Positions 38,607 through 39,967 of a DNA stretch of 64,000 nucleotides are shown here, piece by piece. Within the stretch, counting starts at the first letter, position 1; each line of letters begins with the position of its first letter. This DNA is from Escherichia coli. GTDB taxonomy: Bacteria; Pseudomonadota; Gammaproteobacteria; Enterobacterales; Enterobacteriaceae. The translations under genes were made by a program, and so were the position numbers. The stretch is from NCBI RefSeq assembly GCF_003334355.1, contig NZ_QOWP01000022.1, one strand, 5' to 3'. Below the pieces are notes generated by a model. It worked only from the letters and a program-made list of their open reading frames with translations. It was not told the DNA's origin and searched no databases.

Positions 38607-39419
38607 ATGATTTCACGCAGATGTTTGTTACTGGCTGCCGCCGCAACGTTAACTGCCGGATCAGGCTTCGGCTATATGCGTTATTGGGAACCAGGTTGGC
38701 TCGAATTAACCCATCAGCGCATCGCCTTTTTTAAAGACAAAGCCGCACCCTTCAAAATTCTTTTTCTGGCAGATCTCCATTACTCTCGTTTTGTTCCTTT
38801 AAGCCTAATTTCTGACGCGATTGCTCTTGGCATAGAACAAAAGCCCGATTTGATATTGCTGGGCGGCGACTACGTATTATTTGATATGCCGCTGAATTTT
38901 TCGGCGTTTAGTAACGTACTCTCTCCCCTTGCCGAATGTGCGCCGACGTTTGCCTGCTTCGGCAACCACGATCGCCCTGTTGGTACAGAAAAAAATCACT
39001 TAATTGGCGAGACGTTGAAATCAGTGGGCATCACGGTGTTGTTTAACCAGGCTACGGTGATCGCCACGCCGAACAGGCAATTCGAACTGGTAGGCACCGG
39101 TGACTTATGGGCCGGACAATGCAAACCACCTCCCGCCAGCGAAGCAAATCTGCCAAGACTGATGCTGGCACATAATCCCGACAGCAAAGAAGTCATGCGT
39201 GATGAACCCTGGGATCTGATGCTGTGCGGCCATACTCACGGCGGGCAACTGCGCGTACCGTTGGTTGGTGAACCTTTTGCCCCTGTCGAAGATAAACGTT
39301 ACGTCGCCGGATTAAATGCCTTTGGCGAACGACACATCTACACAACCCGTGGCGTGGGCAGTTTGTATGGTTTGCGTCTGAACTGCCGCCCGGAAGTAAC
39401 GATGCTGGAACTGGTGTAG
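38607..39419 (+). CDS. yaeI: Calcineurin-like metallophosphoesterase YaeI
   Basis: ORF track, 270 aa; metallophosphoesterase motifs GGDYV, GNHD, GHTH; N-terminal signal/Tat-like segment. Confidence 0.9.
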   Translation: MISRRCLLLAAAATLTAGSGFGYMRYWEPGWLELTHQRIAFFKDKAAPFKILFLADLHYSRFVPLSLISDAIALGIEQKPDLILLGGDYVLFDMPLNFSAFSNVLSPLAECAPTFACFGNHDRPVGTEKNHLIGETLKSVGITVLFNQATVIATPNRQFELVGTGDLWAGQCKPPPASEANLPRLMLAHNPDSKEVMRDEPWDLMLCGHTHGGQLRVPLVGEPFAPVEDKRYVAGLNAFGERHIYTTRGVGSLYGLRLNCRPEVTMLELV

Positions 39420-39580
39420 AACGTGAATTTTATCACCACAATAAAGCAGGTAATTTTTTGATTTTTACGCCATGATAGAAGTCTGGAAGAAAAAGGCTTT
39501 CTGCGATCACAGTCGAGCCGGGCGGGCCAGGCCAAATGCTAAAATAAGCACAATTTACTGACTCATTTTGAGGTAACGCT

Positions 39581-39967
39581 ATGTACGACAATCTGAAAAG
39601 TCTGGGTATTACCAATCCTGAAGAAATTGATCGTTACAGCCTCCGGCAGGAAGCCAACAACGATATTCTGAAAATCTATTTCCAGAAAGACAAAGGCGAG
39701 TTTTTCGCCAAGAGCGTTAAGTTTAAATATCCGCGTCAGCGTAAAACGGTCGTCGCTGATGGTGTGGGTCAGGGTTATAAAGAAGTCCAGGAAATCAGCC
39801 CGAATCTACGGTATATCATTGATGAGCTTGATCAAATCTGCCAGCGTGACCGCAGCGAAGTTGATCTTAAGCGTAAGATCCTCGACGACTTACGTCACCT
39901 GGAGTCAGTCGTAACCAATAAGATCAGCGAGATTGAAGCCGATCTGGAAAAACTAACGCGTAAATAA
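39581..39967 (+). CDS. yaeH: UPF0325 protein YaeH (function unknown)
   Basis: ORF track, 128 aa. Confidence 0.88.

Follow-up and report, generated by a model that had tools for sequence, protein, structure and literature searches.

The neighboring Escherichia coli genes yaeI and yaeH are evolutionarily unlinked: yaeI is an accessory cassette bounded by the terminator of dapD and the promoter region of yaeH, and yaeH is a monocistronic core gene beside this strain-variable, recombining cassette. Their adjacency is thus historical, not functional, and it is this context that is new. Taken jointly, the data are best explained by an accessory cassette encoding a Tat-exported metallophosphoesterase (YaeI) next to an independent core gene (yaeH) with its own promoter, an explanation that we regard as probable, with considerable though incomplete confidence.

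Both genes lie in the window, that is, the whole 64,000-nucleotide stretch of E. coli DNA analyzed here. According to the list of open reading frames (ORFs), yaeI occupies positions 38607..39419 and yaeH positions 39581..39967, both on the plus strand and both starting with ATG, and they encode proteins of 270 and 128 amino acids, respectively; the gap between them (39420-39580) measures 161 bp. On the E. coli chromosome, dapD lies upstream of yaeI, here ending at 38553, and the convergent cdaR follows from 40056. A 1.8-kb stretch around yaeI and yaeH is 100% identical to E. coli strain 203740, in whose RefSeq annotation it carries dapD, yaeI, yaeH, and cdaR, and 97% identical to K-12-like strains. 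The coordinates and the size of the gap given in a preliminary description of this DNA were exact against the ORF list, and its naming of the two genes was borne out by NCBIfam and Pfam as well. None of these gene and family identifications can be due to chance. In this respect the observation is correct but ordinary, as both genes are already catalogued and are annotated in every E. coli record, so that no new object is added; what the analysis adds is the evolutionary unlinking of the genes and structural models of both proteins. The remark that neither gene has a firmly established physiological role also stands: a full-text literature search on yaeI, yaeH, DUF3461, UPF0325, and the b-numbers yielded no dedicated functional study of either gene, but only screen hits and strain-construction uses.

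The variable unit is an 842-bp single-gene cassette (38589..39430, plus strand) consisting of yaeI with 18 bp upstream and 11 bp downstream. The flanks shared among strains end at 38588 and resume at 39431, with the junctions (38588/38589 and 39430/39431) placed by alignment and by BLAST of the yaeI-less allele; the left edge (38589) falls inside the T-tract of the dapD terminator. The cassette is present in 2084-2085 of 5426 complete E. coli genomes (~38%), and an unrelated 129-bp filler takes its place in 3339, making the dapD-yaeH locus essentially dimorphic. The dapD-yaeH interval accordingly measures 1027 bp with yaeI, versus 314 bp in O157:H7 and B2 strains. The filler was also considered as a deletion remnant of yaeI, but its BLAST similarity to the yaeI-bearing allele is confined to the shared flanks, which indicates replacement rather than simple deletion. 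In a pan-genome study of mastitis strains, yaeI is among the genes enriched in phylogroup A (bioRxiv 10.1101/096479).

The filler itself (positions 1690-1818 of locus L001, from O157:H7; also seen in L002 and L013) contains a 23-codon ORF on the opposite strand, behind a strong Shine-Dalgarno sequence, GGAGGAAGA. O157, B2, and Escherichia sp. E1V33 all carry this ORF, which corresponds to no annotated feature, in intact form, although indels occur immediately before it. Its 3′ half shares sequence with the hairpin of the dapD terminator, and this overlap alone could explain its conservation.

Outside E. coli, 80 loci from other species were examined for the arrangement of dapD and yaeH. In more than 70 Enterobacteriaceae species the two genes lie 110-126 bp apart without yaeI, the yaeI-less genera sampled being Citrobacter, Klebsiella, Enterobacter, Raoultella, Kluyvera, Cedecea, Kosakonia, and many others; in three further sampled species, likewise devoid of yaeI, the gap is wider (183, 650, and 2591 bp). 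The gene is found at the same site in E. albertii, E. whittamii, and other Escherichia lineages, and, at 66-67% identity, in Superficieibacter and a relative, and the next-closest named YaeI homologues belong to Verrucomicrobiota (45-57%).

The dapD-yaeH-cdaR neighborhood takes up other cargo in other species. A 762-aa ORF that by eye resembles a molybdopterin oxidoreductase lies between dapD and yaeH in Enterobacter wuhouensis (L060, 1461-3749), an additional 236-aa ORF follows yaeI in Escherichia sp. MOD1-EC7003 (L019, 3172-3882), and a 986-aa M60 peptidase/mucin-binding protein is encoded after yaeH in Superficieibacter (L094/L095, 5619-8579). One to three matches to the chromosomal region, with either allele, fall on plasmid-labelled records, which are possibly F-prime-like elements or assembly artefacts.

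The yaeI gene of the window is, furthermore, a recombination mosaic that carries a minority signal-peptide allele. A comparison with K-12 shows 30 differences (25%) within the initial 120 nt of the gene and 17 (2.5%) in the 693 nt that follow. Codons 1-45, the signal region, have a synonymous divergence (dS) from K-12 of 0.69 and a dN/dS of 0.27; the corresponding values for the body of the gene are 0.078 and 0.10. The dN/dS of the body is likewise ~0.1 against strain D10, E. albertii, and E. whittamii. This ninefold rise in dS, with dN/dS below 1 throughout, fits recombination between old lineages under purifying selection, and positive selection on the divergent 5′ end was rejected on the same grounds. 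Of the 2085 genomes with yaeI, 241 have the 5′ allele of the window, which encodes MISRRCLLL. At this position, RRRF[L/I]Q is encoded by K-12, by strain D10, and by most of the other Escherichia examined, and RRRLLQ by two alleles (O111 and E. albertii).

Separately, the yaeI body of about 75 E. coli genomes (e.g., L004/L005, D10 and CT30) is just 88% identical to that of the window. In strain D10, the adjacent 3′ end of dapD and yaeH are also diverged, by 7-9% at the nucleotide level, and the whole dapD-yaeI-yaeH segment of this strain looks like a larger import from another Escherichia lineage.

The position of the cassette bears on how yaeI may be expressed. A terminator scan located the intrinsic terminator of dapD at 38565..38594 (plus strand), with an 8-bp stem containing 7 G-C pairs and a 5-nt loop, followed by ATTTTTTT; its T7 tract ends 14 nt before the ATG of yaeI. 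The Shine-Dalgarno-like AGGGA read from the sequence at 38596..38600 (plus strand) is 6 nt before this ATG. Since the Shine-Dalgarno sequence lies just past the T-tract, no room is left for a dedicated yaeI promoter after this strong terminator, and yaeI is probably expressed either by read-through of the terminator or from a promoter within dapD. A secondary citation in PMC5105897 lists yaeI in the sigma-E regulon. A scan for sigma-E promoters upstream of yaeI brought out no convincing site: the best scored 9/12, a level with a background rate of ~1.1 per kb, and the degP control scored 12/12. The same scan recovered the degP promoter, GGAACTT-16-TCTGA, at 42865 on the minus strand; at 26285 on the plus strand it also gave GGGACTT-15-TCTAA, a match that is strong but unexplained. 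An Rfam search of 38300-40300, with E values up to 1, returned only a sub-threshold sroE hit on the dapD terminator, which, at 21 bits against 51, was taken as chance.

YaeI belongs to the NCBIfam equivalog NF008460, 'phosphodiesterase YaeI', with residues 1-270 matching positions 2-271 of the 271-position profile at 519.5 bits (the curated whole-protein cutoff is 188 bits), and it matches the Pfam family PF00149 (Metallophos) with E=9e-12. The metallophosphoesterase domain spans residues 49-212 (38751..39242, plus strand), as delimited by the Pfam match, the invariant alignment columns, and the fold matches. Calcineurin-like metallophosphoesterases are recognized by the motifs DxH, GD, GNH[D/E], H, and GHxH, which bind two metal ions. 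All five are there in YaeI—D56-x-H58, G87-D88, G119-N120-H121-D122, H189, and G208-H209-T-H211—and they are invariant or nearly so in an alignment of YaeI with 27 homologues (28 sequences, with identity down to 46%). YaeI is therefore a calcineurin-like metallophosphoesterase, and the full motif set ascribed to it in the preliminary description is directly seen. One source names the protein 'phosphodiesterase with model substrate bis-pNPP', a database name, and the exact protein of the window represents a cluster (P0121) of 433 member sequences. Searches of the PDB with YaeI, both as a single sequence and as a profile, found no relative, so that the YaeI/YkuE subfamily appears from these searches to be without a close experimental structure. 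A PADLOC search gave no matches to anti-phage defence systems, and a PHROG search gave just weak, generic metallophosphoesterase matches, which do not mark the gene as phage-derived.

In Tat signals, an N-terminal motif resembling [S/T]-R-R-x-F-L-K precedes a hydrophobic region that is free of charges. Codons 1-45 of yaeI (38607..38741, plus strand) encode a putative twin-arginine signal region that begins MISRRCLLLAAAATLTAGSG, with R4-R5 encoded at 38616-38621; the N-terminus of the window protein reads S-R-R-C-L-L and continues with LAAAATLTAGSG, which at the sequence level conforms to the Tat motif. R4 and R5 are invariant across all 28 aligned sequences, with an uncharged hydrophobic stretch next to them, and the second Arg is kept despite a codon difference (CGC vs AGA) between alleles, which argues that the pair matters. 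In the AlphaFold model of YaeI (pLDDT 86), residues 4-17 form a detached helix and residues 15-27 a low-confidence linker, followed from about residue 30 by a confident alpha/beta sandwich core. Thus, the export-like N-terminal segment noted earlier is real, and the Tat-motif check proposed for it turned up the expected pattern. The RRCLLL of the window allele departs from the F-L-K consensus, with K-12 retaining RRRFLQ, and the window signal also has a very short n-region and no clear AxA cleavage site; this allele could accordingly specify an uncleaved anchor or a poorer Tat signal.

Bacillus subtilis YkuE is a Tat-exported, cell-wall-associated metallophosphoesterase of a Gram-positive bacterium. 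The five catalytic motifs and the invariant twin-arginine N-terminus of YaeI make a YkuE-type phosphodiesterase, exported by Tat to the periplasm, its most likely identity. In the mechanism that we propose, YaeI would fold and load two metal ions in the cytoplasm, and the Tat pathway would then move the folded protein across the inner membrane. After export, YaeI would be either released or held by its N-terminal helix as an anchor, and in the periplasm it would cleave some phosphodiester or diphosphate substrate. Here Tat dependence, periplasmic location, and substrate class are what we infer; family membership, intact catalytic motifs, the invariant arginine pair, purifying selection, and the accessory and mosaic status of the gene have direct support.

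Other readings of yaeI were weighed against this one. Placed behind a strong terminator and with a Tat motif that has degenerated, the gene of the window might be a hitch-hiker that is in decay or no longer functions and is en route to loss, as its start codon so close to the T7 tract, the replacement of RRRFLQ by RRCLLL, and the absence of yaeI from 62% of genomes could suggest. We consider this decidedly unlikely, however, as the 270-codon ORF is intact with every family-invariant residue kept, dN/dS is well below 1 in both the body (0.10) and the signal region (0.27), the identical protein recurs in 433 deposited sequences, and the arginine pair with two hydrophobic residues next to it still fits a minimal Tat pattern. 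Electronic annotation with 'lipid A biosynthesis' would instead imply a cytoplasm-facing UDP-2,3-diacylglucosamine diphosphatase like LpxG or LpxH. YaeI does give a partial match to the NCBIfam LpxG model NF033458, and yaeI transposon mutants were enriched after selection with phage T7 in a study whose authors grouped yaeI with LPS genes (PMC7414163), but that grouping was based on annotation, not on an assay, and the score of 124.5 bits is far under the cutoff of 350 bits, so that YaeI is not an LpxG member and relatedness is all that the match conveys. In addition, the invariant twin-arginine signal points to the periplasm, and a gene that 62% of E. coli genomes and most of the Enterobacteriaceae sampled lack cannot provide a required step of lipid A synthesis; a cytoplasmic role of this kind is thus highly improbable. 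A further conceivable role, although a very improbable one, is that of a periplasmic LpxG-related diphosphatase/phosphodiesterase that edits a phosphorylated envelope lipid or LPS group. The dimorphism between yaeI and the filler and the deep recombining alleles would then be kept because the edit alters susceptibility to LPS-binding phages, e.g., T7; possible targets within this equally speculative reading would be the lipid A 1-diphosphate, an undecaprenyl-linked intermediate, or core phosphates. The preferred reading of YaeI remains that of a Tat-exported enzyme of the YkuE type.

Whether yaeI and yaeH form a functional two-gene module, either as an operon or as interacting partners, can be judged largely from their distribution. 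They are adjacent on the same strand, 161 bp apart, and the order dapD-yaeI-yaeH recurs in Superficieibacter. However, 3339 of the 5426 E. coli genomes and more than 70 other species have yaeH but no yaeI, and distant YaeH homologues have no metallophosphoesterase neighbor; moreover, a separate RpoD promoter lies in the spacer between the genes (PMC3946193), and YaeI has an export signal and YaeH none. The co-occurrence data effectively refute such a module, for which the probability is close to nil. Of the 'pair' in the preliminary description, therefore, the adjacency holds, but the functional unit does not, yaeI being an accessory cassette beside a core gene.

The 150 bp directly upstream of yaeH (39431..39580, plus strand) contain its promoter region, as delimited by alignment, BLAST, and an RpoD site from SELEX. 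Escherichia with and without yaeI have this sequence in common, but BLAST matched it in none of the other genera sampled; these carry a conserved element of their own, TTAATTAT, at the corresponding place upstream of yaeH. The SELEX site is a constitutive RpoD promoter found by genomic SELEX in the yaeI-yaeH spacer, reading toward yaeH (PMC3946193). A candidate extended -10 element, TGcTAAAAT, with no recognisable -35, can be read at 39537..39545 (plus strand), 35 nt before the ATG of yaeH; it is conserved in O157 and nearly conserved in E. albertii. A strict sigma-70 consensus scan, for which a -35 is obligatory, called neither this candidate nor any other promoter in the region. The Shine-Dalgarno sequence GAGGT lies at 39570..39574 (plus strand), 6 nt before the ATG. 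In the more than 70 species without yaeI, yaeH stands alone behind the dapD terminator. Together, the SELEX site, this stand-alone arrangement, and the candidate -10 support a separate sigma-70-type promoter for yaeH in the 161-bp gap, as had been supposed beforehand.

Downstream of yaeH, a scan found two adjacent hairpins at 39969..40024, without assigned strand, the first of which is terminator-like for the convergent cdaR. The two hairpins lie in the 88-bp yaeH-cdaR spacer (39968-40055) and are shared by the window and K-12. B2 E. coli and E. albertii have a different spacer of 52-59 bp with a hairpin of its own, and strain D10 has a third version of 114 bp. Since this spacer too exists in unrelated versions, yaeH is flanked on both sides by replaced intergenic DNA.

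YaeH, described beforehand as a small conserved protein, is indeed a 128-aa, full-length member of DUF3461/UPF0325: it matches Pfam PF11944 (DUF3461) over profile positions 1-125 of 125 with E=2.7e-55 and scores 244.4 bits against NCBIfam NF010213, for which the cutoff is 150. Its identity is 94-100% across the Enterobacteriaceae sampled and 83-89% in Dickeya, Pectobacterium, and Erwinia. The family is small, with merely 172 clusters at 50% identity among 1.84 billion protein representatives, and its named DUF3461 members are Gammaproteobacteria among the matches listed. PDB searches with YaeH, as a single sequence and as a profile, gave only non-specific coiled-coil hits on the C-terminal half and no solved relative. 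Two further matches were set aside, namely one to Psb28 (E=0.88) and one to a 4103-aa protein (P0305), a vertebrate tenascin-like protein with FN3 repeats whose score is a spurious sum of weak repeats. Structure prediction, which had been suggested for YaeH, produced a model with a pLDDT of 81, in which residues 1-90 form a five-stranded, tentatively PH-like beta domain with a helix cap and residues 93-127 a long, amphipathic, coiled-coil-like C-terminal helix. In a Foldseek search of this model against AFDB50, the 50 matches listed were all DUF3461 members.

Gene context gives no clue to the function of YaeH, because in four distant homologues the gene stands alone in unrelated neighborhoods that have nothing in common. 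The protein has been detected in the proteomes of E. coli, Dickeya, Cronobacter, and Klebsiella, its abundance is lower in a Dickeya lon mutant, and deletion of yaeH, or the yaeH-cdaR spacer, has been used as a neutral marker site. Our best guess, offered tentatively on the basis of the model, is that YaeH may be a non-enzymatic adaptor or binding protein. As a small cytoplasmic protein with a beta domain and a coiled-coil-like helix, it might bind a partner or an anionic ligand through the conserved basic K-F-x-F/Y-x-R strand of the beta domain, and the C-terminal helix might mediate self-association or association with a partner. A more specific role, namely that of a nucleic-acid- or membrane-associated stress protein induced by peroxide via OxyR, would be in line with the location of the basic strand in a predicted PH-like domain, with the presence of YaeH in membrane or OMV preparations, and with a curation paper (PMC4207228) in which, on the strength of one transcriptome study, yaeH is listed as induced by H2O2 and dependent on OxyR. 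The same paper, however, treats the OxyR link as weak evidence that was not accepted by RegulonDB, no OxyR-like site was seen by eye in the yaeI-yaeH spacer, and GroEL, EF-Tu, and ribosomal proteins appear in the membrane-fraction lists as well, so that YaeH is there probably an abundant cytosolic contaminant. We therefore regard this role as unlikely and retain the generic adaptor or binding protein as a tentative guess.

These results provide a sharper start for de-orphaning both genes. The probably Tat-exported enzyme encoded by yaeI is naturally present in 38% of E. coli and absent from the others, and because this polymorphism is clean, natural isogenic-like comparisons are available. yaeH, for its part, encodes a strongly constrained small protein restricted to Gammaproteobacteria.

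With respect to known systems, we take an unnamed short E. coli homologue in a published alignment of YkuE-related proteins to be YaeI. That alignment (PMC5449189), through whose legend the two proteins are linked here, covers the family of YkuE, a proven Bacillus Tat substrate. Like YaeI, B. subtilis YkuE has a calcineurin-like metallophosphoesterase domain behind a twin-arginine signal, and the same logic, export of a folded, metal-loaded enzyme, would be expected for both; YkuE is bound to the cell wall, whereas YaeI is predicted to be periplasmic or anchored in the inner membrane. With the solved metallophosphoesterases GpdQ (2dxl), Rv0805 (2hy1), Mre11 (3av0), and UshA (2ush), YaeI shares the superfamily fold and the motifs of the binuclear metal site, but at merely 12-17% identity and TM-scores of ~0.45 the resemblance of the model is at the superfamily level only. 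The homology to LpxG, the UDP-2,3-diacylglucosamine diphosphatase of Chlamydia, covers YaeI residues 133-269, the C-terminal half of the metallophosphoesterase domain; unlike LpxG, YaeI has an export signal and is dispensable and strain-variable. YaeH shows no differences from its family, DUF3461/UPF0325 (PF11944), and its predicted N-terminal beta sandwich and helix, a tentative PH-like fold, superpose over 56-72 residues on PH-like domains such as those of Spt16/Pob3 and TFIIH p62/Tfb1. Finally, replaced intergenic regions are known from pan-genome studies of non-coding DNA in E. coli. In such switched regions, unrelated alternatives lie between conserved flanking genes, as they do at the dapD-yaeH and yaeH-cdaR spacers, but at dapD-yaeH one of the alternatives holds a whole gene.
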